Shown piece after piece: positions 7,768-33,304 of a DNA stretch of 49,886 nucleotides (the stretch's first letter is position 1; every line of letters begins with the position of its first letter). Source of the stretch: a virus. Lineage: Duplodnaviria > Caudoviricetes. The stretch covers positions 1-49,886 of IMG/VR virus record IMGVR_UViG_3300020016_000008; one strand, 5' to 3'. The translations under genes and the position numbers were made by a program. The notes beneath the pieces are model-generated. The model ran no database searches and had not been told where the DNA came from. It saw only the letters and a program-made list of their open reading frames with translations.

Positions 7768-7998
7768 TCAATCCAGCCGAAAGAGCAGCGGCTGCTCCGA
7801 AGTGAATTGCAGTTCGGCCGCGGCGATTTCGCTGCGCAGCGCCGCAAACATCTTATCGATCTGCTCGGGCTCATAGTCGTAACTTCCCCGGCGCGAGAGC
7901 TTGCCAATGCGTCGAATGGTTTTCATAGCCAGCGTTACTCGTTTTTCCGCCAAGGACCGAAACTTCAAAGCTTTGCCGTTTGTGGTATGGGCATCCAT
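7768..7998 (-). CDS. conserved hypothetical protein
   Basis: F..LAEKRV......IR.IG.LS...Y.Y..EQI..MF.AL pattern; AGGAGG RBS. Confidence 0.7.
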   Translation of the reverse strand: MDAHTTNGKALKFRSLAEKRVTLAMKTIRRIGKLSRRGSYDYEPEQIDKMFAALRSEIAAAELQFTSEQPLLFRLD

Positions 7999-8306: not shown

Positions 8307-8338
8307 GGCGGGCCCTCCGGGGCATTTGAGGAAAAAGG

Positions 8339-8434
8339 GCGCGCGGCACCTCGCGATTGGGCATCAAAGCGCCTGTGGCCGGGCGCGCGCAGTCGCATAG
8401 CTTCTCTGGGCATCACGACACCCTTGGCGACCGC
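8339..8434 (-). ncRNA. TIGR-like satellite array (2 stem-loop units)
   Basis: Minus strand reads GCGGTCG-CCA-AGGGTGTCG-TGATGCCCA-GAGAAGCTA-TG-CGACTGC then GCGCCCGG-CCA-CAGGCGCTT-TGATGCCCA-ATCGCGAGG-TG-CCGCGCGC. Confidence 0.9.
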
Positions 8435-8446
8435 GATTGGCATTGG

Positions 8447-9092: not shown

Positions 9093-9526
9093 CTGAAAAA
9101 TTCCCCGGTTTGTCAGGCTGGTGCCAAGAGCATTGAGCGCACATCCGCGCAGGATCAATAGCGAAGTCAAAAGGCCAACGGATATTTTGCAGTTCGCCGT
9201 TAGCGCTGCTGACGGTCAGAAAAAAAAGTTTACCCGGTTGCGGAATACCAAAAAAGTTTACGCCGGTGTTCGTATCGATACCGTATCGCTTCGCAATACA
9301 AGTATGGCGTTGTGCGCCGAGCAGCACCAAAAGTGTGGCGCGACTTGACAGCGCAATTGTTTTGTCAGTTTAACTAGCGATGAAATTGCCGAGGCGTCTA
9401 GACGCACCCTTATAATCTATAAGCACTCGGCAAACTCGACCACCACACGACCAATCCCGCCGAGGCTTATCGTCAACATGGGACCAATCCTCATGGTGGC
9501 TATTGCGACCGCATGCGACCGCCTGC
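9093..9526. promoter_or_regulatory. divergent control region
   Basis: AT-rich; TTGACA at 9345 inside the TGACA-N12-TGTCA inverted repeat; TATAAT at 9411; duplicated AAAAAAGTTTAC at about 9222 and 9250. Confidence 0.5.
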
Positions 9527-9574
9527 GCGCCCGGCCACTCCTTCGGTGATGCCCAGCCGGCAACTGCCGGGCGC
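9527..9574 (+). ncRNA. TIGR-like single unit in the operon leader
   Basis: GCGCCCGG-CCA-CTCCTTCGG-TGATGCCCA-GCCGGCAAC-TG-CCGGGCGC, preceded by two orphan TGCGACCGC half-stems. Confidence 0.9.
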
Positions 9575-9601
9575 CCCCTCTCTCTTTGATCGGATAACCA
9601 G

Positions 9602-10228
9602 ATGACACAAACCAGAACCACGCTGCACGATCTTGCGAAATTCGCCGCCGAAGTTTTGCAGCAAAATGGCAATGACCCCGAAAAAGCATTGCCAAAATTC
9701 GATGCCGCTTTGAAGAAACGCGACGATCTGCGCCATGCCGTGCTCTTCGATTATCTCCAGCGCTTACAGCCGGCGAAGCCGCGCACCCCTCGCGTGAAAA
9801 GCGTGCATGTCGACGAGCACCGTCGGCGCCGCCCCCGCAGCGACGAGGAACGCAAAGGGGAACTCATGTCGGCTGCACACCACGGCGAAGTGCTACGCTC
9901 TGTTTTTGAACATGAGGTCAATAATCGGCCGGTCGGGAAATTCCGTTGGGGCGAGCTGACTTTGGCGGTGCGGGAGAACGCGTACAACGCCGCGAGCTAT
10001 TTGCGCCTCGGCACCGAAGCTACTGCCAACGCGCTACTACTCGACAAGATTCATGGTCACGCCTCGGTCGACGATCACGAAAAGCTCGTTAACCAAGTAC
10101 TCAGCCCGAAACAATTGCAAGCATATCTCGACGAGGCGCGCCGCGAGGCGCCGTTGCGAATTGAAGAGGGAATGCACCGCTATGCCGCCAGCCTCGAAGT
10201 TAGCCAGCCGCAGGAGTTGATCCAATGA
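9602..10228 (+). CDS. hypothetical protein, translationally coupled to the Tas-like gene
   Basis: 208-aa helical ORF; ATGA overlap with 10225. Confidence 0.8.
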   Translation: MTQTRTTLHDLAKFAAEVLQQNGNDPEKALPKFDAALKKRDDLRHAVLFDYLQRLQPAKPRTPRVKSVHVDEHRRRRPRSDEERKGELMSAAHHGEVLRSVFEHEVNNRPVGKFRWGELTLAVRENAYNAASYLRLGTEATANALLLDKIHGHASVDDHEKLVNQVLSPKQLQAYLDEARREAPLRIEEGMHRYAASLEVSQPQELIQ

Positions 10229-11100
10229 GAGCGCCGGACTTAACCAGGATCGAAGTCGTTAATTTCATTCGCGCCGAGCACCGCCGGCGGCGCTTCGCAA
10301 TGAAGGTGCAACAGAAACTCGACCGTGCGCTTGAATCATTCGTGCGCCGCAACTGCACCGATTGGACTTTCGACGCTGATGAGAAACAGCGCAAGGCGTT
10401 CAATGAACAGACCGCGGCGATCATCAAAGCGGCGAGAGCTGGCGAAGGCGATCCGGTCATTGTCGAATTGATCCAAGCGACCGAGCGCGGCCGCGCGCCG
10501 TTTGATGCGATGCGCAAGGCGGCCGAGAAGAAAATGGCGGAACTCGCGGAGACATTGCCGGTCGCGGAATGGATACGGGACAAGGTACATGGCGCCGGAA
10601 TGCTCGGCATGGCGACGATCGTGGCAGAAGCCGGCGATCTGTCGAACTATTCAAATCCCGCGAAGCTATGGAGCCGATTGGGATACGCCCCGTTCGACGG
10701 GCACGCGGGATCGACGTGGAAGCGGGCCACATGGCGGTCGCGCGCGCTCACTGCGGAAGAATGGGTCGAGCACCCCTTCGCAGGGGAGCGTTACGCCCTC
10801 ATGTTCTCGATCGCCGATTCACTTTGGCGAGCGCAGTGGGTCTCTGCCAAGAAAGCCGGCGCCGAGGAAGGCCACGCGGATGGCGCGTATGGTGAAGTTT
10901 ACGCCGCCCGCCGTGCGCACACGTTCACCACCCATCCAGACTGGTCAAAAATGCACCGGCGGATGGACGCGTTGCGGGTCATGATGAAACAGTTTCTCGT
11001 CGATCTCTGGCAGCAGTGGCACCGCGAGCCTTCATCGGCGCCGGTGCCCAAACTCACGCCGAAACCTCGGCAGGGTCGAACTCGGAAACCCAAGACATGA
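10225..11100 (+). CDS. tasA: Nop-domain RNA-guided protein, TasA-like (no RuvC/HNH)
   Basis: Coiled coil followed by the IS110/Nop signature VHGAG..GMATIVAEAGDLSNY.NPAKLWSRLGYAP and C-terminal H...ALRVMMKQFLVDLW..W; no DEDD RuvC domain; directly followed by a dual-spacer array. Confidence 0.85.
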   Translation: MRAPDLTRIEVVNFIRAEHRRRRFAMKVQQKLDRALESFVRRNCTDWTFDADEKQRKAFNEQTAAIIKAARAGEGDPVIVELIQATERGRAPFDAMRKAAEKKMAELAETLPVAEWIRDKVHGAGMLGMATIVAEAGDLSNYSNPAKLWSRLGYAPFDGHAGSTWKRATWRSRALTAEEWVEHPFAGERYALMFSIADSLWRAQWVSAKKAGAEEGHADGAYGEVYAARRAHTFTTHPDWSKMHRRMDALRVMMKQFLVDLWQQWHREPSSAPVPKLTPKPRQGRTRKPKT

Positions 11101-11108
11101 ATCTAATT

Positions 11109-11641
11109 GCGGTCGCCAGTCGGCGCGTGAAGCCCAGGACAGCATTGCGACCGCCGAGCCCGGCCAGTTCAACACTGATGCCCATCGGTCGCGTGCCGGG
11201 CTCCCCTCTTCGAACTGCGGTCGCCACCGGCGCATTGATGCCCATCGAACCTGTGCGACCGCCCGCGCCCGGCCAAGCGGCACGTGATGCCCCTTCACGA
11301 GATGCCGGGCGCCCTCTTTCACGAACTGCGGTCGCCAGCGCAAATCTGATGCCCACTGTACTGGTGCGACCGCCGAGCCCGGCCACTTGTAGATTGATGC
11401 CCAGGGAGAGCGTGCCGGGCTCACCTATCCGAACTGCGGTCACCAGCACGTCAGTGATGCCCAGGGCCAAGCTGCGACCGCCTGCGCCCGGCCAGGTCAG
11501 GTTTGATGCCCACTCCACGGATGCCGGGCGCCCCTATCCGAACTGCGGTCGCCACTTGACCATTGATGCCCAACGATCAGATGCGACCGCCCTGCGCCCG
11601 GCCACTCCTTCGGTGATGCCCACTCCACGGATGCCGGGCGC
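11109..11641 (+). ncRNA. TIGR-like stem-loop array, 10 units with paired 9-nt spacers
   Basis: Units start at 11109, 11156, 11217, 11265, 11328, 11375, 11436, 11484, 11545 and 11594; each is stem-CCA-N9-TGATGCCCA-N9-TG-stem; stems alternate GCGGTCG/CGACCGC and G(A or C)GCCCGG/CCGGGC(T or G)C. Confidence 0.93.
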
Positions 11642-11668
11642 CCCTCTTGCATGGCCGGAATCTGACGC

Positions 11669-13194: not shown

Positions 13195-13238
13195 GAGCGG
13201 CCAGAGAGCTGCACGAGAGAGTTGAGCCCATGAGTTTG

Positions 13239-13334
13239 GCGGTCGCCAGCATGTCGATGATGCCCAGGGGACTGATGCGACCGCCTGCGCCCGGCCGCTT
13301 GTTGGCTGATGCCTAGTGCGCGTGTGCCGGGCGC
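13239..13334 (+). ncRNA. TIGR-like satellite array (2 units)
   Basis: GCGGTCG-CCA-GCATGTCGA-TGATGCCCA-GGGGACTGA-TG-CGACCGC then GCGCCCGG-CCG-CTTGTTGGC-TGATGCCTA-GTGCGCGTG-TG-CCGGGCGC. Confidence 0.9.
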
Positions 13335-13384
13335 TCTTCTTCTCTGCCTGCGATGCGATCCGAACCGAACATGAAGATTGACCC

Positions 13385-19302: not shown

Positions 19303-20241
19303 TCATTTGATAATGACCTTGGCGAAGTACGGCGGGAGAGTTTGGTTCTGGTCGAACTCGATCCGCACCAGCTGCTGTCGTTCGACGGGGGCCAAGGTCT
19401 TCTGAAACTCCTTCGGCAGTGCCCCGGCAATGTTGCTGATCTTTGCGATGGTGCCGGCCAGGGCCCCATTGACCACACCGCCGCCGGCATCGACCTTGAC
19501 CTTGTCGCCGACCTTGAGCTGGTAGAGCCGGTCAATCGGAAAGAAGGCGAGGACGTAGCGATGCTCGCCGACCAGTTCGATCAGCGGCTCGCCCTCGCGC
19601 ACTACCGCCCCCGGGCCGACCTTGATCACACTGACCACGCCGTCGATGGGCGAGCGCATGTTGCCGGCGTCGAATGAGTTCTGCAGGTCAAGCAGCGCCA
19701 TGTCGGTCTGTCGCGAGGCTTCAACCACCATCGTGATCTGTTCGCTAAGTGCCTGCTTCTCGGCCTGTAATGCGGCGAGGTCCTGCTTACCCCGGAACAT
19801 CTGGTCGACCGCCGTCGTGCGCGTGATGGTCGGCGTGTTGCCCTTCTCAGCCGAGGCCCCAAGCTGGGCCGCACCTTCGGTCGCGACCTTCTCGCGCAGC
19901 TCAGCCGCGGTCAGCAATGAATTTTGCATCTGAAGCCGGGTGCTGTTCTCCGCCAATTTGGCGGTCAGTGATGCGGAACTGATCGTCAGTCGCGCGCTCA
20001 CTTCTGTGATTCGGGTCGATGTGACGCGAGCAACAACGTCCCCCCGTTTGACCGACTGTCCTTCTTCCACCAGCACCTGCTTAACAGTGACGGTGTACTC
20101 GGGCGCGACCGCAGCAGGATCGCCGACCACCAGCCCCTCGCTGTGAATGTAGACCCAGCCGCCGGTTATGGAACTGCCGATCCATGTAAAGAGGCTAAGC
20201 AAGCCGCTGATGTAGAACCACCGGACGAATGTACGCTTCAT
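19303..20241 (-). CDS. HlyD-family membrane fusion protein
   Basis: N-terminal TM; lipoyl halves V.EGQ.V..GD.VA and RSPIDGVV...V..G.VV..GEPL around a coiled coil. Confidence 0.88.
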   Translation of the reverse strand: MKRTFVRWFYISGLLSLFTWIGSSITGGWVYIHSEGLVVGDPAAVAPEYTVTVKQVLVEEGQSVKRGDVVARVTSTRITEVSARLTISSASLTAKLAENSTRLQMQNSLLTAAELREKVATEGAAQLGASAEKGNTPTITRTTAVDQMFRGKQDLAALQAEKQALSEQITMVVEASRQTDMALLDLQNSFDAGNMRSPIDGVVSVIKVGPGAVVREGEPLIELVGEHRYVLAFFPIDRLYQLKVGDKVKVDAGGGVVNGALAGTIAKISNIAGALPKEFQKTLAPVERQQLVRIEFDQNQTLPPYFAKVIIK

Positions 20242-21440
20242 GTCAGCCGCCAGCGCTGGGCCTTCGGGACATAGTCGTCATGGCGCGTGATCGAGAATGC
20301 CAGCTCGGCCGCCAGCGCGAACACCCGCAGCGGGCGCAGCACGAACGTCTGCTCGATGAGGTAGAGCGGCACGTAGGGGACCAGTCGCAGCGGCAAGCCG
20401 ACCAATAGAACGATGATCCCGTCGAGAACCGCCAGACCGAGCATCACGGCGCCCAAAATCACGAAGGCCGTGGCACCGACCTTGGTCCATATCCACCACA
20501 CATAGACCGGGAATACCAACTGCAGCACGACGGAGAACACCAGCACGTCGAGGCTCGTGACGAGATTGCTACCCGTCAGGTTGCGCGCGATCGGGTTAAC
20601 CATCCCGCCGAACTTGAACAGCCAGATCGTGATGATCGAGGCGTCCCAGCGCAACCGTTGGAGCGTAAGCCCGGTGATATCCTCGGGCACGTTGGTCGAA
20701 GCGTAGGCATTGCCGGCATAGCGCAGCTTCCAACCGGCGCGCCGCAACTTCATAGCCAAGGCTGCATCTTCCGCAACCTCGACATCCAGCCCGCCGACCG
20801 CGGTGAGGGCTTCGCGTCGGAACACACCGCCGGCCCCCGACACATTTGGCAAAATGCCGAAGGCATCCGAGCACATGCGCCCAGCCGTGAACTGAACCGC
20901 ATACTCGATGGCTTGCAGCCGCGTGATGAGCGAAACATGCGCGTTGCGGACCCGCAGGTTGAGGCCGACGCCGGCCACGTCCGGGTCCAGAAAATACGGT
21001 TTCACGGTCGCGATCGCCTCGGGCGCCAGCGTGGTGTCGGCATCGCAAATCACCACCAGATCGCCGGTGCAGTGCGCCAGCGCCTTGTTCACCGAAGTCG
21101 GCTTGCCCTGACGCTCCTCGTTGCGCAGAACGATTACGCCCAGCGACGGCAGCACCAGCCTGGTGTCGTCCTCGGAACCGTCATCGACCGCAACGATCTC
21201 TTCGACCCCGGCTGCCCGCAAAGCGCCAACACAGGCAGCGACTGTCTTTTCCTCGTTGTAGCAAGAGACCACCGCGCTGACCTGGAAGCTGGTCTGCCCC
21301 TGCGGATAGCGGCCGGGCGCAATCGCGACCACAAAGGTCGACAGCAAGTAGCGCGGCACGTCCATGATGATCATGAGCCAGAACAGCAGCACCAGCTCGC
21401 CGGAGCCCAACGCTAAGAGCATATCGAGCGGGGCGCTCAT
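20238..21440 (-). CDS. processive GT2 polysaccharide synthase (PgaC/HAS/NodC-like)
   Basis: YNEE, DDGS, DADT, SGAGG.FR, AED and QRLRW (D,D,D,QxxRW) with flanking TM helices. Confidence 0.92.
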   Translation of the reverse strand: MSAPLDMLLALGSGELVLLFWLMIIMDVPRYLLSTFVVAIAPGRYPQGQTSFQVSAVVSCYNEEKTVAACVGALRAAGVEEIVAVDDGSEDDTRLVLPSLGVIVLRNEERQGKPTSVNKALAHCTGDLVVICDADTTLAPEAIATVKPYFLDPDVAGVGLNLRVRNAHVSLITRLQAIEYAVQFTAGRMCSDAFGILPNVSGAGGVFRREALTAVGGLDVEVAEDAALAMKLRRAGWKLRYAGNAYASTNVPEDITGLTLQRLRWDASIITIWLFKFGGMVNPIARNLTGSNLVTSLDVLVFSVVLQLVFPVYVWWIWTKVGATAFVILGAVMLGLAVLDGIIVLLVGLPLRLVPYVPLYLIEQTFVLRPLRVFALAAELAFSITRHDDYVPKAQRWRLT

Positions 21441-21961
21441 TCAACCACCTCGAACGGTGCCTCTGGATAAGCGTCCATGCGCGAGATCAAGTTGCACTGC
21501 GAGATCGTGTAAATCCTGAGAACATACTTACCGACGGGCAGTGGCGGGTGGTCCATGACCGACACCGTCCGAATGACATCGCTGGTGCCCTGGGTGATGA
21601 TCCCAATAAGCGAATCCCGGTAGCCGATGAACTCGGTCTCGTTGCCTTCCTTGATTGCCGAGCCTTCGACCCCGTGCCGCTCTAGCACTTCCACCGCAGC
21701 CTGCTTGTCCTTGTACACGATGAAACGTTGCACGTCGGTCCTGCACGGCTTGTTGCGCCGGAACACCGCCAGGTACTTGAGCTGCTCGCCGGGCTTGATC
21801 TTGCTTTCAAACAACTCCAACCGCATCGGCTCCACAGGCGGAATGAAGAAGTCCGAAGCCAGGTACGAAAACACGATGGTCATGGCAAAGAAGTACACCG
21901 CCAGCGAGGCCAGGAAGAACCTGGCGACCATGTGACCGATGATGCCAAGGGAAAAGTTCAT
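21437..21961 (-). CDS. membrane-anchored hypothetical protein
   Basis: N-terminal TM; ATGA coupling. Confidence 0.7.
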   Translation of the reverse strand: MNFSLGIIGHMVARFFLASLAVYFFAMTIVFSYLASDFFIPPVEPMRLELFESKIKPGEQLKYLAVFRRNKPCRTDVQRFIVYKDKQAAVEVLERHGVEGSAIKEGNETEFIGYRDSLIGIITQGTSDVIRTVSVMDHPPLPVGKYVLRIYTISQCNLISRMDAYPEAPFEVVE

Positions 21962-22212
21962 CGGAACAACTTGACCACGTTGCCACCAACGGACACCAGC
22001 CAACCGATGACGGCCCCCGCTCCCATCAGTAGGGCCATTGCCCCGATGCCCTTGTTCATCAGCGAAGAAACCTCCCCCTGTTTCTTCTCCAGTTCATCGA
22101 CCCGCTTCATGAGACCGCGCTGCCGTTCGACCAGCAGCGTGATCTCGGCTGACGCCGACGCTGAACTGCGCGGCCGACGGCGACCAGCATCATCCTCGCC
22201 ATCTTCATTCAT
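21958..22212 (-). CDS. coiled-coil plus TM holin-like protein
   Basis: Short coiled coil then a Gly-rich TM; ATGA coupling. Confidence 0.6.
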   Translation of the reverse strand: MNEDGEDDAGRRRPRSSASASAEITLLVERQRGLMKRVDELEKKQGEVSSLMNKGIGAMALLMGAGAVIGWLVSVGGNVVKLFR

Positions 22213-28490: not shown

Positions 28491-30520
28491 ACCGCCTCCA
28501 GGTCATAGCCGATCGGGATCTTCAGGTCGGTGACCTGCACGTCGTAATCGCTGGAGAACTCGCGAGTCATGCTCTTGAGCTTGAAGGTCGCGCGGGTCTC
28601 TACTTGCTTGAGAGCATTTCTGATTGCTTCGGATCGTGCCTGCACCGCCGCCTGCAATTGCTGCTGCTCCTCGTCGGTGATGAACGGTTTGAAAATCGGT
28701 GCGGCGTTCCGGAATCCCGAATGAGTAAAGACATAATCGGCCTGCACGGACGCGGGGTTCTCGACCACCAGCGGCTGATCGATGACATCCTCGGCCCGCA
28801 ACACGGAGGTGAAGTCGAGGCCGTCATCATTCGGATTGGAACTGGGCGGCTGGTATCCAACCGAAGTATCGAGCAGGACGGTCCTTCCGGTGAATTGCTG
28901 ATAATCGGCGCCGGTATAGTCAATGCTGCAATAGGTCGGAGTCCCGTCCGCGGCTACGACCGAACCGCCGCGACCGATAGCGCAGCCAATACGGGCCTCG
29001 CATTGTAGGCGCCCATCCGATCCATTCAACGCAATCGAATAGCCGATGATCTTGCCCAGCGCCTCGCCGACGCGCGGCTCGATCAGAGACGCATTCTTGC
29101 GCAACGTGATCTCGGGCATGCGCGCGAGCTTGGGGGCGAAGGCGATCTCCACCACCCGCGCCCGCTTCAGCAAGTGCGCCCGCGCCAGCGCGATCAGATG
29201 TTCTAGGCTTCGATTACCACGCTCGGTCGCAATGTAAGAGCGCCGCCGCAGATCGCCGATCGGCACCTCGGCGCCGAGCGGTTCGCTCAGGTTGACAGAT
29301 TTGACGTCATCGATCCGCAGCGCCTCACCATCCTCTGGATCGGTCAGAACATGCTGCACGTCAGCCATCAGCGAGAACGACACGCGCTCCGTGCATGGCC
29401 GGTTGGCTGAATAGCCCGCCGTCAGGCTGACCGTCGTGAAATGCAACGGCAGCGCGGCGGCAACCGCCGTATATTGGCGGCTCAGCGATGTGCTCGAGCC
29501 TGATTCCCCCGGTATGCCGAACACCGCCTGCACCTTGCCAAGCGTCACACTGCTCCGGTCGCTGGTCACCATCCGCGGCCAGGACAGATAAGATGGCGCG
29601 ACAGTGTAACTCTCCGTCTCTGATATCGTTGTGTGCGTGCTCGACGGACCAAACCATGACGTGTCGGGAAAGATGACCGTAATGTCGGAACCCGTGGTCT
29701 TGCTCTTGACCGACAGATCATAGGGCGTCGATGCGGATGCTTCGGCGACCACCCAGCCATCGCCGATCGTGGCTCCGGCCTTTGGCCAACCGTCGGACGT
29801 CAAGCTATACGACGTGATATAGTTGCGGCCACCGTCTGGCCAATTCCGGCACAGATAGTCGCTCAGGTCGACTCGTCCCTGCGCCTGTTGCGTCCAGGCA
29901 TACTCAGCGACAATATCGACCCGCGACAGCGGCCCGCTGGTGAGTGTGAGGCTGAGGCCGTCATATAAAACCTTGCCGTCCTCGCTGACACCGTCGAACT
30001 CGACCAGCCCATCCTCGCCGTCGATCTCGTCCGAGACCGTCAGGACATGCGTCTCGCGGTCGTAGTGCCAGATCTTGCTGTAGCCTTCCAAGACCACCTC
30101 CGGATCGGTGCGCCGCGCCTTGTCGATCACCACCTCGTCGTAATAGGGCAGCACCCGCAGCGTCTGCGCCAGCGCTTCCTTCTGAGCCACCAGGTCGATC
30201 GGCCGCGCCACGAATTCCAGCGTCACCAGTTCCTCGAATATGCTGGTCGGCACCCCAACAAGCCGGCCACGAAACTTGACCAGGTCGGGCCCGCAGTCGA
30301 GCGCGAACCAGCACCAGATTTTGCGGCCGGGACCGAGCAAACCGATCGCATTGCCAGCCTCGTTGCGTGGGCGCCGAACCGCGAGGGTGAGGGAGGCAGG
30401 GTCGCCCTCGTCCTGCTTGAGCGTGAACGAAAATACGCTCTCGTCCCAACGCATATGCTCGGGCAAGAACGCCGTCTCGCCCGGATCGATCCAGGCGAAA
30501 TAGGGCATCCCCGCTGGCAT
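28487..30520 (-). CDS. tail tip/hub protein
   Basis: Large ORF two genes after the tape measure gene. Confidence 0.75.
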   Translation of the reverse strand: MPAGMPYFAWIDPGETAFLPEHMRWDESVFSFTLKQDEGDPASLTLAVRRPRNEAGNAIGLLGPGRKIWCWFALDCGPDLVKFRGRLVGVPTSIFEELVTLEFVARPIDLVAQKEALAQTLRVLPYYDEVVIDKARRTDPEVVLEGYSKIWHYDRETHVLTVSDEIDGEDGLVEFDGVSEDGKVLYDGLSLTLTSGPLSRVDIVAEYAWTQQAQGRVDLSDYLCRNWPDGGRNYITSYSLTSDGWPKAGATIGDGWVVAEASASTPYDLSVKSKTTGSDITVIFPDTSWFGPSSTHTTISETESYTVAPSYLSWPRMVTSDRSSVTLGKVQAVFGIPGESGSSTSLSRQYTAVAAALPLHFTTVSLTAGYSANRPCTERVSFSLMADVQHVLTDPEDGEALRIDDVKSVNLSEPLGAEVPIGDLRRRSYIATERGNRSLEHLIALARAHLLKRARVVEIAFAPKLARMPEITLRKNASLIEPRVGEALGKIIGYSIALNGSDGRLQCEARIGCAIGRGGSVVAADGTPTYCSIDYTGADYQQFTGRTVLLDTSVGYQPPSSNPNDDGLDFTSVLRAEDVIDQPLVVENPASVQADYVFTHSGFRNAAPIFKPFITDEEQQQLQAAVQARSEAIRNALKQVETRATFKLKSMTREFSSDYDVQVTDLKIPIGYDLEAV

Positions 30521-30909
30521 CAGACGATCTCTCGCTGCTCGGCCTCGAGCATCCACGCTATTTCTGCCGACCATTCATCGCGGGACGTATTCCAGGCCGT
30601 GACCTTCGCGAGAATGGTCAGCACATCGCCGGTCGTATTGGCGGCGCCCAGGCCGGGAATGCAAGTGATGGTGATGTCCTGCCCCGGCCACACATCCGTG
30701 AGCTCCGGCGCCTCATGGTCAGTACACGTAATCGAAACTTTGTATTGTCGAAACTGCGCCACCGAAATATCTGCGAGTTCGCCGCGGCAGTCGCGCGCCA
30801 CGTTCTTGGCCTGGTCGATCGGCGCCAGCGTCATCGTGATCCCGCGCACTGCAAATTGCGAGAAGTCAACGCCATCGATTGCGAGCAGCGTATAGGCAGG
30901 CGTTGTCAT
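30520..30909 (-). CDS. distal-tail-like protein
   Basis: First gene after the tape measure gene; 129 aa. Confidence 0.7.
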   Translation of the reverse strand: MTTPAYTLLAIDGVDFSQFAVRGITMTLAPIDQAKNVARDCRGELADISVAQFRQYKVSITCTDHEAPELTDVWPGQDITITCIPGLGAANTTGDVLTILAKVTAWNTSRDEWSAEIAWMLEAEQREIV

Positions 30910-30955
30910 TCATACGTCCTTGACAGGCCGATGGAGGCGAGCGCACGGTTCCGAT

Positions 30956-31050
30956 GCGGTCGCCAGCCTCGTGATGAAACCCACTGCACCGATGCGGCTG
31001 CAGAGCCCGGCCAGTGCATACCTGATGCCCATCACGGCGGTGCCGGGCTC
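30956..31050 (+). ncRNA. TIGR-like satellite array (2 units), antisense to the late operon
   Basis: GCGGTCG-CCA-GCCTCGTGA-TGAAACCCA-CTGCACCGA-TG-CGGCTGC then GAGCCCGG-CCA-GTGCATACC-TGATGCCCA-TCACGGCGG-TG-CCGGGCTC; TTGACA at 30920. Confidence 0.9.
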
Positions 31051-31057
31051 CCCTTCT

Positions 31058-33304
31058 TCAACTGTATCTGCTCGGCTTCCTGCCGCCGCTTCGGACCTGC
31101 GCCATCGCTGCGGCCTTGCGCAGTTCATCGACAACGGCGGACGACGCACGCAGGCCGGTTATCTCGGGCAGGCCTGGAAAGTTGATGGTGACGTTGTTCA
31201 TGGTGCCACCGCCTGCGAAGGCGGGGATCGAGAGCGTCGGCGCCACCAGGCCGCCCAAGGCAAACCCGCGCATGCCGTCGAGGATGTCGCGCAGGTTGCC
31301 GCCCGAGTGGCGCAAGGCCTCGAGGAAGGCGAGGACGCCCGGCTGGGCCACCGCCCGTGCCGGCGTGATGTACTCACCACGTGAAACCCAAGCGAGATTG
31401 CTGTCGCTCGTGCCGGTACCGCGACCGCCGAGCAATCCGCCACCCGCGAAGCTACCGCCAGTGGCGCCCGCTGGCGCCGCGGCTGCCCCGCCGCCGAAGC
31501 CCAGCTTCGCGACCATCGCGTTCCACATATCGACGATCCACTGCCAGGCACTCGCGACCGGCGTCGTCACGAACGCCGTAATGGCAGCCATGGCTTGATC
31601 GGCCGCACTCTGCAGCGATGCGACGACACTGGTGAATGTATCGACGATCCATTGCCAGGCGCTGCTGACCGGCGTGGTGACCCAGGCATCGAGCAAAGCC
31701 TTGGCCGTGCTGAAGATCGCAGAGAGGACCTCCGGCAAACGCATCCAACCTTGAACGATCTGCCCCAGCGTCGTCATGAGCTGCGAGCCGAGCATGTTGA
31801 ACGACTCGACGACCTGCGCGGCGAACTCCACGACACGCGCGGTGATGTTGTCGATCGCCGTCGTGGCGCTCGCGGCCGCGCCCGAGAAGATCGTCGATGC
31901 CCACGCCTGCTTGAGCCGCTCCCACGCGCTCGCAAGCCGCTGGCTGCTCTCGTTCATCTGCTCGAACGTCGTCGCCGTCTGCGGGCTGATCAGCACGCCG
32001 GCCGCTTTTATCTTCTCGAACAGATTGTCGATCTTCGTCACTTCAACGCCGTAACGACGCACGCGGTCGACGTCGGTCTCAGAGAAGCCAAGCGCCGCGC
32101 CGATTTTGAACGCATCCTCCTTCGGCAAGTTCGCGATGATCTTGAGCAGCGACTTGCCGACGTCGCCGCCGGCATTGGCGACATCCTGCAGGACGACCTT
32201 GATGGCGGTGAGCTTGGTCTCGGCCGTCACCAGACTGTCGAACGCAAACAGTGTTGGCGGCGATGGCGTGGCTCCCAGCGCCGCGATCTGCGACATCAGC
32301 ACCACGATGTTTGTCAGATTGTTCGCGGCAGCCTTGGCGCTGTCCTCGCGCGCCTTCGCCAATCTCTTCTCGGCGTCCGCAAGATCGTCGGTCTTTTTTG
32401 CCACTTCGAGCAGACGCTCGACCTCTTGCACGCGACGCTCGGCGTCGCCAGAGAATGCGCTCTTCGCAATCTGCACCTGGAGCAACGCTTTCTCGGCCTC
32501 GAGCAGTTCGATGGTCGCACCGCGAATCTTGTTGGCCGATGCCTCGAACGCCTCGCCGGGCTTGAAGCCCTCCAGCTCCTTGGCGATGTTGGCAATCACG
32601 CTACGGAATTTCTCCGCCGAGATGCCGATTTGTCCGAACGCCTGCTGCCCGACCTGCAGATCGGTGAACGACTGGCCGATATCGCGCGTCTTCGTCGCCA
32701 GGTGATCGAGCGTATCCGACAGCCGCGCATCGTCGAACGCGATCCGCTCGAGCGCCGCGGCAAGGATGCCGAGACCGGCGACCGCGGCGCCGATCGCGCC
32801 GACGAACACGCTGCCCAGACTGAGCGCGAACGTGCCGACAGCAGCCGCCGCTGTGACTGCCTGCACGCCCAGGGCTGCCGTTGCCGTACCGGCCGAGGCG
32901 ACGCTCGCCGCCGCCGAGCCGACCGCGGCGCCGGTGCGCACCACGTTGAGCGCAAGGTTCGCATACGAGGTTGACGACTTCTCCGCCGCGTCGCCGGTCT
33001 TGGCGATGCCCTCGGCCGCCTTGGCGCTTTCCTCCGCGGCCTTGCCGAGCCCTTCGCCGGCTGCGGTGGCGGCCTCGCCGACTTGCTCCAGCGGAGGCGC
33101 CGTCTTCGCGGATGCTTGCGTCAGATCCCCGAACGCCGCGACCAGGCCGTCGACGGCCTTCTGAGTTTGCGGATCGATCTGCGCTTTCGATGCAGCATCC
33201 TCGATCTGCGCGAATGCCGACGACGCAGCCTTGGCCAGCGCCTCGAGCTGCTTGCGGATGTCGTCGCCACCCTCGATGCTGATCCTCTGACTTATCGTCG
33301 CCAT
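31058..33304 (-). CDS. tape measure protein
   Basis: Ala-rich helical protein, WQWIVD repeats, C-terminal FA.GG..G.GTGTSDS...S.GEY. Confidence 0.92.
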   Translation of the reverse strand: MATISQRISIEGGDDIRKQLEALAKAASSAFAQIEDAASKAQIDPQTQKAVDGLVAAFGDLTQASAKTAPPLEQVGEAATAAGEGLGKAAEESAKAAEGIAKTGDAAEKSSTSYANLALNVVRTGAAVGSAAASVASAGTATAALGVQAVTAAAAVGTFALSLGSVFVGAIGAAVAGLGILAAALERIAFDDARLSDTLDHLATKTRDIGQSFTDLQVGQQAFGQIGISAEKFRSVIANIAKELEGFKPGEAFEASANKIRGATIELLEAEKALLQVQIAKSAFSGDAERRVQEVERLLEVAKKTDDLADAEKRLAKAREDSAKAAANNLTNIVVLMSQIAALGATPSPPTLFAFDSLVTAETKLTAIKVVLQDVANAGGDVGKSLLKIIANLPKEDAFKIGAALGFSETDVDRVRRYGVEVTKIDNLFEKIKAAGVLISPQTATTFEQMNESSQRLASAWERLKQAWASTIFSGAAASATTAIDNITARVVEFAAQVVESFNMLGSQLMTTLGQIVQGWMRLPEVLSAIFSTAKALLDAWVTTPVSSAWQWIVDTFTSVVASLQSAADQAMAAITAFVTTPVASAWQWIVDMWNAMVAKLGFGGGAAAAPAGATGGSFAGGGLLGGRGTGTSDSNLAWVSRGEYITPARAVAQPGVLAFLEALRHSGGNLRDILDGMRGFALGGLVAPTLSIPAFAGGGTMNNVTINFPGLPEITGLRASSAVVDELRKAAAMAQVRSGGRKPSRYS

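Follow-up and report, generated by a model that had tools for sequence, protein, structure and literature searches.

The virus record IMGVR_UViG_3300020016_000008 (49,886 bases; estimated completeness 91%) was analysed as a whole and is referred to as the window in the following. It contains a short guide cassette that is inserted between the gene encoding the tape-measure protein and the conserved small gene that directly follows it. The product of the small gene (open reading frame (ORF) 30520-30909, without a match in Pfam or PHROG) is, by its position, likely a small tail protein. The cassette has the architecture of stem-loop TIGR guides (tigRNAs); the phage encodes a Nop-only Tas protein; the site specified by the first guide of the cassette is present exactly, and at orthologous codons, in related phages (siblings); and the phage's own copy of this site diverges from the guide. 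The positions of the various features are collected in Table 1.

Most siblings have 0-6 nucleotides between the tape-measure stop and the small gene, whereas the window has a 148-nucleotide insert with two tigRNA units at this junction. Folded alone, both units form their closing stem; in a longer fold unit 1 does not. The cassette includes a TTGACA that may act as a -35 element, no consensus -10 was recognised in it, and a scan for a consensus promoter or terminator was negative. Two near-identical strains differ at two spacer positions of unit 2, and no variant was listed in the spacers of unit 1 or in the own target site across four runs. Two candidate targets of unit 2 were discarded: a site with 4 mismatches at 29407-29424, where 67 homologues show 7-12 mismatches, and L167:1501-1518, the sole exact viral match, a single hit being at chance level. 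The latter falls in an ORF that by eye resembles an HNH-type endonuclease, a resemblance for which Pfam gave no match.

The guide of unit 1 (guide 1) was compared with the best 80 of the 106 viral loci that contain the small gene; one of these (L001) has an identical protein and cassette and was set aside, which left 79 loci. The predicted 18-nucleotide target, i.e. spacer A followed by the reverse complement of spacer B, equals the column consensus of the small-gene family, and the number of mismatches to it was 0 in 22 loci, 1 in 19, 2 in 10, 3 in 25, 4 in 2 and 5 in 1. TIGR units were found in none of the 79 loci, and the cassette was recovered from one other contig (L239) in a metagenome scan. 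When all IMG/VR viral contigs were scanned for the 18-mer, 28 exact matches were obtained, without exception at the orthologous codons. Three control geometries of guide 1 gave no match with ≤ 2 mismatches in the 80 loci, and neither did the other 16 guides of the window. The initial annotation had proposed an opposite-strand 9+9 target geometry and had anticipated that the exact 18-mer would occur in homologues devoid of the cassette. Both proposals are supported: the sibling site was found only with spacer A plus the reverse complement of spacer B (computationally, and for one guide), and the 22 exactly matching loci contain no unit. As judged from the sequences, the orthologous exact target in siblings is solid. 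Carrier and target can share a habitat: in one run (X13), a contig identical to the window was accompanied by another that reads through the matching site. A Tas match was found in 1 of the 80 tail-gene contigs, a number that is uninformative because only one contig was at least 90% complete.

The phage's own copy of the site shows five mismatches (positions 6, 9, 12, 15 and 18), and these are, as initially annotated, all synonymous and all at third codon positions of T-C-T-D-H. The raw match of 13/18 is at chance level, as the window contains 18 sites with ≤ 5 mismatches to guide 1, one of which is better. Full synonymy with a coding site within ~1 kb was reached by 26 of 100,000 shuffled 18-mers (~0.4% allowing for 17 guides); the distance between guide and target is 239 bases. 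Five of the six third positions differ (P = 0.019-0.039 with the gene's own synonymous rate, 0.001 with column frequencies). The five comprise four true mismatches and one G-T wobble, and one of them corresponds to position 4 of spacer B, a seed position by the rules for TasR (PMC12045711; the mapping is ours). The codons had been called atypical, which applies to TGT (5% of Cys codons) and ACT (9% of Thr codons) and not to CAT, an ordinary codon (44% of His codons); ACG and GAC are preferred codons of the phage. Likewise, the AT-shifted patch that had been noted around the site exists, but it adjoins the site (codons 53-60) and does not cover it: the G+C content of the site is 10/18, as compared to 60% for the small gene. 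None of ~320 guides matched the patch, which could stem from a guide since lost, from targeting by a rival or from recombination of the block. The own gene has 12 differences from the consensus in codons 53-66, against a maximum of 11 in 59 other genes, and 41 outside these codons, against a median of 40. Active recoding of the own site is supported rather than proven, and the comparison at this site alone is suggestive.

The guide system of the window belongs to the stem-loop TIGR-TasA family by every feature that could be tested. The TasA-type ORF has 337 homologues, and a profile built from 100 Tas homologues matched the TasR structure 9MTY (E = 1.3e-4) and TasH (E = 0.033). The structure model (pLDDT 89) had only TasH and TasR among its ten best Foldseek matches (E = 2e-4 to 1.6e-3) and is helical from residue 8 of the 291 residues, which leaves no N-terminal HNH or RuvC domain. 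A scan with the unit motif stem-CCA-9 nt-TGAxxCCCA-9 nt-TG-stem recovered 17 tigRNA units with 6-8 of 8 stem pairs each: ten after the TasA ORF (the end of which lies ~15 nucleotides ahead of the main array), one at 9535, and the pairs 8378/8427, 13246/13295 and 30963/31011. In a check for the CUU stem-base motif, CTT was found after unit 2 of the cassette (31053-31055) and after several, not all, of the array pairs. Searches of the window returned no Rfam family. For the other 16 guides, and apart from L167, isolated hits with 2 mismatches occurred at control-like rates in 2.8 Mb and 0.35 Mb of sequence, and allowing gaps of 1-2 bases yielded no target. Some spacer halves are reused across units (9538-9546, 11513-11521, 11605-11613 and 11623-11631), and unit 11602 has the spacer A of unit 9535 together with the spacer B of unit 11492, a pattern that suggests half-spacer recombination. 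The helical ORF that overlaps the start of tas (9602-10228) is a possible Tas partner; no fold match was found for it, and similar-looking ORFs precede tas in the related phages L133 and L135.

A scan of metagenomes with a degenerate guide pattern recovered two stretches, namely the window itself and L239, the small gene of which is 77% identical to that of the window. In L239 the junction is likewise occupied by a cassette, in which the TTGACA and 17 of the 18 guide bases are retained, while unit 2 is collapsed or lost. Its own site has three mismatches, of which those at positions 9 and 18 are common to the window and the third changes Thr to Ala, a residue found in 0 of 119 protein homologues, where Thr occurs in 116 of 119. 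In a tree built from 61 small-gene sequences with the target codons masked, a sister relationship between the window and L239 was not resolved (support 31); L049, which lacks the cassette, was joined to the window phage with weak support (62%).

Of 319 guides of relatives, the canonical geometry gave three with an own site that lies within 1 kb and is fully synonymous, guide 1 of the window being one of them; each of three control geometries gave none. Another of the three is a guide inside the tas gene of L133 (L133:7852), which is a silent variant of a site at 7973 in the same gene; it encodes NKLGAF, which is present in the own tas where others have RALESF. This guide is possibly aimed at the tas gene of siblings; no sibling with the exact sequence was found, and its three exact matches, in an unrelated gene without a tas match, were treated as chance. 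A guide at the end of tas in L135 (L135:11088) matches the next gene at 10448, which is YqaJ-like by similarity; against this exonuclease gene it has 3 silent mismatches in the carrier and 2 in three siblings, and no exact viral match was found. A near hit in L157 was in a spurious frame and was dropped with better gene calls. In the related phage G007 (L089, L094, L206 and L242), nine tigRNA units lie near a locus homologous to the early region of the window; the 40.6-kb contig gave no tas match and contains a 17-unit GGY-NN tract.

A different insert was found at the same junction in 5 of the 79 loci, plus further loci from the exact-match scan. These solo cassettes resemble those of the VIPR system: they consist of 11-15 GGY-NN pentamers followed by a hairpin (an inverted repeat recognised by eye), in keeping with the 9-16 repeats and structured tail of VIPR guides, and three of the four insert types are preceded by a TTGAC-like motif. 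Decoding with a skip of one base, the skips falling on wobble positions, directs three of the four inserts to the same small gene and one to the end of the tape-measure gene, with scores of 22/22 (L033), 23/24 (L064), 27/30 (L192) and 20/20 (L028, first ten units); skips of 0 or 2 gave nothing above the cut-off, and the window-region score was reached by 0, 0, 0 and 4 per 1000 shuffles, respectively. The own sites of the carriers score 16/22, 16/24, 20/30 and 16/20 in the same order, values as low being found in 0/54, 1/54, 0/54 and 5/52 of the non-carriers. These low self-scores arise from amino-acid changes or from Ser/Leu codon-class switches, and the alterations are at codon positions 1-2. 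The TIGR target is matched 18/18 by three of the four VIPR-like carriers, and at the L192 site the score of the window phage (27/30) is the highest. Combined over the six carriers (TIGR and VIPR-like), the self-scores give p = 4e-4. As to a Vipr protein, one unverified candidate from L221 had no match in five partial contigs (that of L033 was not searched whole); a stretch of L221 (7642-11231) contains four long GGY-NN tracts (18-47 units) around a 209-amino-acid ORF that is left unnamed by Pfam and Atlas and that may encode a Vipr protein. The window phage itself has no GGY-NN tract of at least 8 units. At residue 19 of its small gene (30853-30855) it has Phe, versus Tyr in 105 of 119 homologues, which gives one mismatch to the L033-type guide, and against the L028-type guide its tape-measure site at ~31375-31415 scores 18/20; both are possibly a partial escape from the guides of rivals.

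Table 1. Positions of the guide cassettes, the Tas system and associated features; positions refer to the window unless a contig is named
Feature	Position	Strand	Remarks
Small gene, conserved	30520..30909	-	129 amino acids; directly after the tape-measure gene; assigned by position
Tape-measure protein gene	31058..33304	-	Upstream operon neighbour
Two-unit guide cassette	30910..31057	+	148 nucleotides; between tape-measure stop and small-gene start; antisense to structural operon
TTGACA, putative -35 element	30920..30925	+	Conserved in the L239 cassette
Stem-loop tigRNA unit 1	30955..31002	+	CCA, spacer A 30966-30974, loop 30975-30983, spacer B 30984-30992, TG, closing stem
Stem-loop tigRNA unit 2	31002..31056	+	Spacers 31014-31022 and 31032-31040, then CTT
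Own copy of guide target site	30710..30727		Codons 61-67, TCTDHEA; five synonymous mismatches to guide 1
AT-rich, synonymously divergent patch	30730..30753		Codons 53-60; 7/24 bases G+C; beside target
TasA-type protein	10225..11100	+	291 amino acids; coiled coil and Nop domain, without nuclease domain
Main stem-loop TIGR array	11104..11645	+	10 units, stem types alternate
Single tigRNA unit	9523..9575	+	Upstream of tas operon
Two-unit satellite array	13236..13335	+	
Two-unit satellite array	8337..8437	-	
Helical ORF	9602..10228	+	208 amino acids; overlaps tas start; 21 homologues
Solo VIPR-like GGY-NN cassette	L033:3942-3996	-	
Solo VIPR-like GGY-NN cassette	L064/L067:4891-4950	-	
Solo VIPR-like GGY-NN cassette	L192:302-376	-	
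Solo VIPR-like GGY-NN cassette	L169:843-917	+	
Solo VIPR-like GGY-NN cassette	L028:4883-4947	-	

We favour the reading, at a probability of roughly 0.6, that the solo TIGR guide, together with the nuclease-less TasA loaded in trans, represses the structural operon of siblings while the silent mismatches spare the own copy. The cassette would be transcribed from its own TTGACA promoter element, and the tigRNA processed from the transcript would be loaded in trans on the phage's own TasA. The complex could then bind the matched site in a co-infecting or resident relative and, being bound in the middle of the operon, would act as a roadblock that stops transcription of the downstream tail and lysis genes. 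Roadblock-type repression of transcription has been shown for a different TasA (Xu et al. 2026, bioRxiv 10.64898/2026.09.09.750476). At the own copy the five silent mismatches would abolish binding, and selection against self-binding may have produced or kept them; the ~240 bases between guide and site would keep the guide and the resistant allele together when tail modules recombine. The attack on sibling phages put forward in the initial annotation is retained insofar as the sibling site is the exact target of the guide, and takes another form in that repression is likelier than cutting, because the Tas protein has no nuclease domain. Its proposal of self-immunity by recoding is likewise upheld in part: self-avoidance is backed by the second carrier L239 and by the parallel VIPR-like cassettes, and the mismatches may have arisen either after the guide (recoding) or before it (filtering).

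Several observations weigh against repression of siblings with a spared own copy. Taken alone, the excess of mismatches at the own site is modest (the P of 0.019-0.039 given above), 1 of 54 non-carrier genes is as divergent as the own site, and the divergence extends to codons 53-60, which the guide does not cover. L049 has five mismatches, yet its complete genome contains neither a Tas match nor the cassette. The mismatch count of L239 is common, as 22 of 54 non-carriers score as low, and the two TIGR carriers combined reach only p = 0.08. Two of the VIPR controls are confounded, L192 by its general divergence and L064 by a site that spans the gene start, a region in which 16/24 is scored by L033 and L192 as well. 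The other 16 guides of the window had no credible target in ~3.2 Mb of partly overlapping loci, and Faure et al. (PMC12045711) report that TasR gave no phage protection in E. coli.

Part of these observations would be expected under the main rival reading, in which the mismatches predate the guide and only a lineage with an already divergent block (codons 53-66, perhaps recombined) could keep it; the effect on competitors would be the same. The divergence of codons 53-60 outside the target (7 differences in the window, 6 in L239), the mismatches at positions 9 and 18 that are common to both carriers, and the weak grouping with the window of the cassette-free L049 with its five mismatches are all in line with such filtering. 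The Thr to Ala change private to L239 and three further changes private to the window, however, look like continued selection, and the VIPR-like carriers altered codon positions 1-2, as their skip code requires; we consider this order of events unlikely, though not implausible. The initial annotation had also offered a homing-like guide linked to a resistant allele. In such a drive, binding by TasA, or a nuclease borrowed in trans, would provoke recombination that copies the resistant allele and the cassette into a sibling. The 239 bases between guide and target and the insertion at a junction that is empty in most siblings would suit homing, and free-standing endonucleases cut at hundreds of bases from their own gene and co-convert the flanks (PMC2988022). 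The Tas model has no nuclease domain, however, and the 148-nucleotide cassette leaves no room for a nuclease gene; moreover, carriers of the cassette are few (none of the 79 viral homologue loci and one other metagenome contig), and the two carriers, with different own alleles and 77% identity over the gene, do not suggest recent copying. With no nuclease and so few carriers, homing is improbable.

The antisense position of the guide within the operon, near the site, and the repression of transcription by nuclease-less Tas proteins (Xu et al. 2026 preprint) could also point to self-regulation, in which the guide binds the own mismatched site weakly, or acts as an antisense transcript, and so tunes the structural operon. 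This fits poorly, because the guide tracks the sibling consensus and not the own sequence; in addition, the two carriers diverged differently from a guide that itself remained unchanged at 17 of 18 positions, and we regard self-regulation as very improbable. A chance resemblance of the 18-mer to a conserved site might be argued from the frequency of 13/18 matches, from the ~1-3 exact matches expected in a collection with an assumed size of 50-100 Gb, and from the chance-like single-lineage exact hits of other guides. It is refuted by the location of 28 out of 28 exact matches at one orthologous position in the neighbouring gene, by the rarity of a nearby synonymous match among shuffles (26/100,000) and by a second phage with the same arrangement, and its probability is negligible.

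The papers that define TIGR-Tas systems describe their natural targets as largely unknown and treat their biological role, too, as an open question (Faure et al. 2025, PMC12045711; Xu et al. 2026, bioRxiv 10.64898/2026.09.09.750476). With the published stem-loop TIGR-TasA systems (the same two sources and, for PlTasA, bioRxiv 10.64898/2026.08.11.744272) the window has in common the Nop-only Tas and the dispersed sub-arrays, as well as the two 9-nucleotide spacers between CCA and TG in a stem-closed unit, in which spacers A and B read opposite strands of an 18-bp site. Unlike in those accounts, the window guide has an orthologous target in siblings, sits 20 kb from tas beside the target gene, and has a mismatched own site. 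The literature consulted, including four supplement files of PMC12045711 and the text of the Xu preprint, contained no natural tigRNA target with a recoded self site; the bioRxiv supplements, outside this scope, may list targets. A comparable arrangement is formed by the mini-CRISPR arrays of SPV1 and SPV2 (Medvedeva et al. 2019, PMC6858448; passages on viral mini-CRISPR arrays are also found in PMC11656645 and PMC7099407), which target a related virus near the position of the array and whose carrier has point mutations or deletions in its orthologous locus. Those arrays use CRISPR repeats and the Cas proteins of the host, whereas the window has a split guide of the box C/D type and a phage-encoded nuclease-less effector. 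VIPR and its solo vrRNAs (bioRxiv 10.64898/2026.04.26.720920; 10.64898/2026.10.15.759431) are alike in being phage-borne, in the RNA-guided repression of competitors, in the solo guides, and in a self-match below the match to the rival. VIPR skips every third base, so that a silent third-position change offers no escape, whereas the TIGR guide reads contiguous bases, which makes such an escape possible. The free-standing homing endonucleases of T-even phages (PMC2988022) are similarly intergenic elements aimed at a distance at the neighbouring gene of relatives; unlike these, the window cassette has no linked nuclease, and no spread was seen.

These comparisons lead to a broader proposal, which we consider evenly poised: the junction may be a shared battleground, where solo guides of two unrelated systems, TIGR and VIPR, are repeatedly placed to act on the siblings' copies of the essential genes on either side, and where each carrier rewrites its own copy as the guide code demands (third positions for TIGR; first and second positions or amino acids for VIPR). 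Guide and resistant allele, linked in a unit the size of a module, would then drive the divergence of phage lineages in codons and proteins. If repression of siblings holds, with competing relatives likely silenced and the carrier spared, the site would be one of the rare natural targets available for a system in which these are largely unknown. With a concrete guide and effector, a matched target and an allele that is resistant by nature, the locus makes a role of nuclease-less TasA in phage-versus-phage competition directly testable. It also provides a search rule for further targets (synonymous variants of the guide in the neighbouring gene, then in siblings), and the co-occurring VIPR-like cassettes allow contiguous guide codes to be compared with wobble-skipping ones in a natural setting, on one and the same gene.

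The remainder of the window encodes, among others, terminase, capsid, portal, tail tube, endolysin and integrase, besides the tape-measure protein. The runs that hold the window are from soil metagenomes and one pond, and no RNA dataset was among the listed holders. The host is likely alphaproteobacterial, because the small gene occurs in one prokaryote genome bin, that of an uncultured alphaproteobacterium, and because the best terminase matches (~50%) are to Agrobacterium and Labrenzia phages; the small gene was not found in any cultured phage. After the lysis genes, at 19303-22003, the window has genes for an HlyD-like protein and a family-2 glycosyltransferase, and the 3-kb block that contains them is 82% identical in G007.
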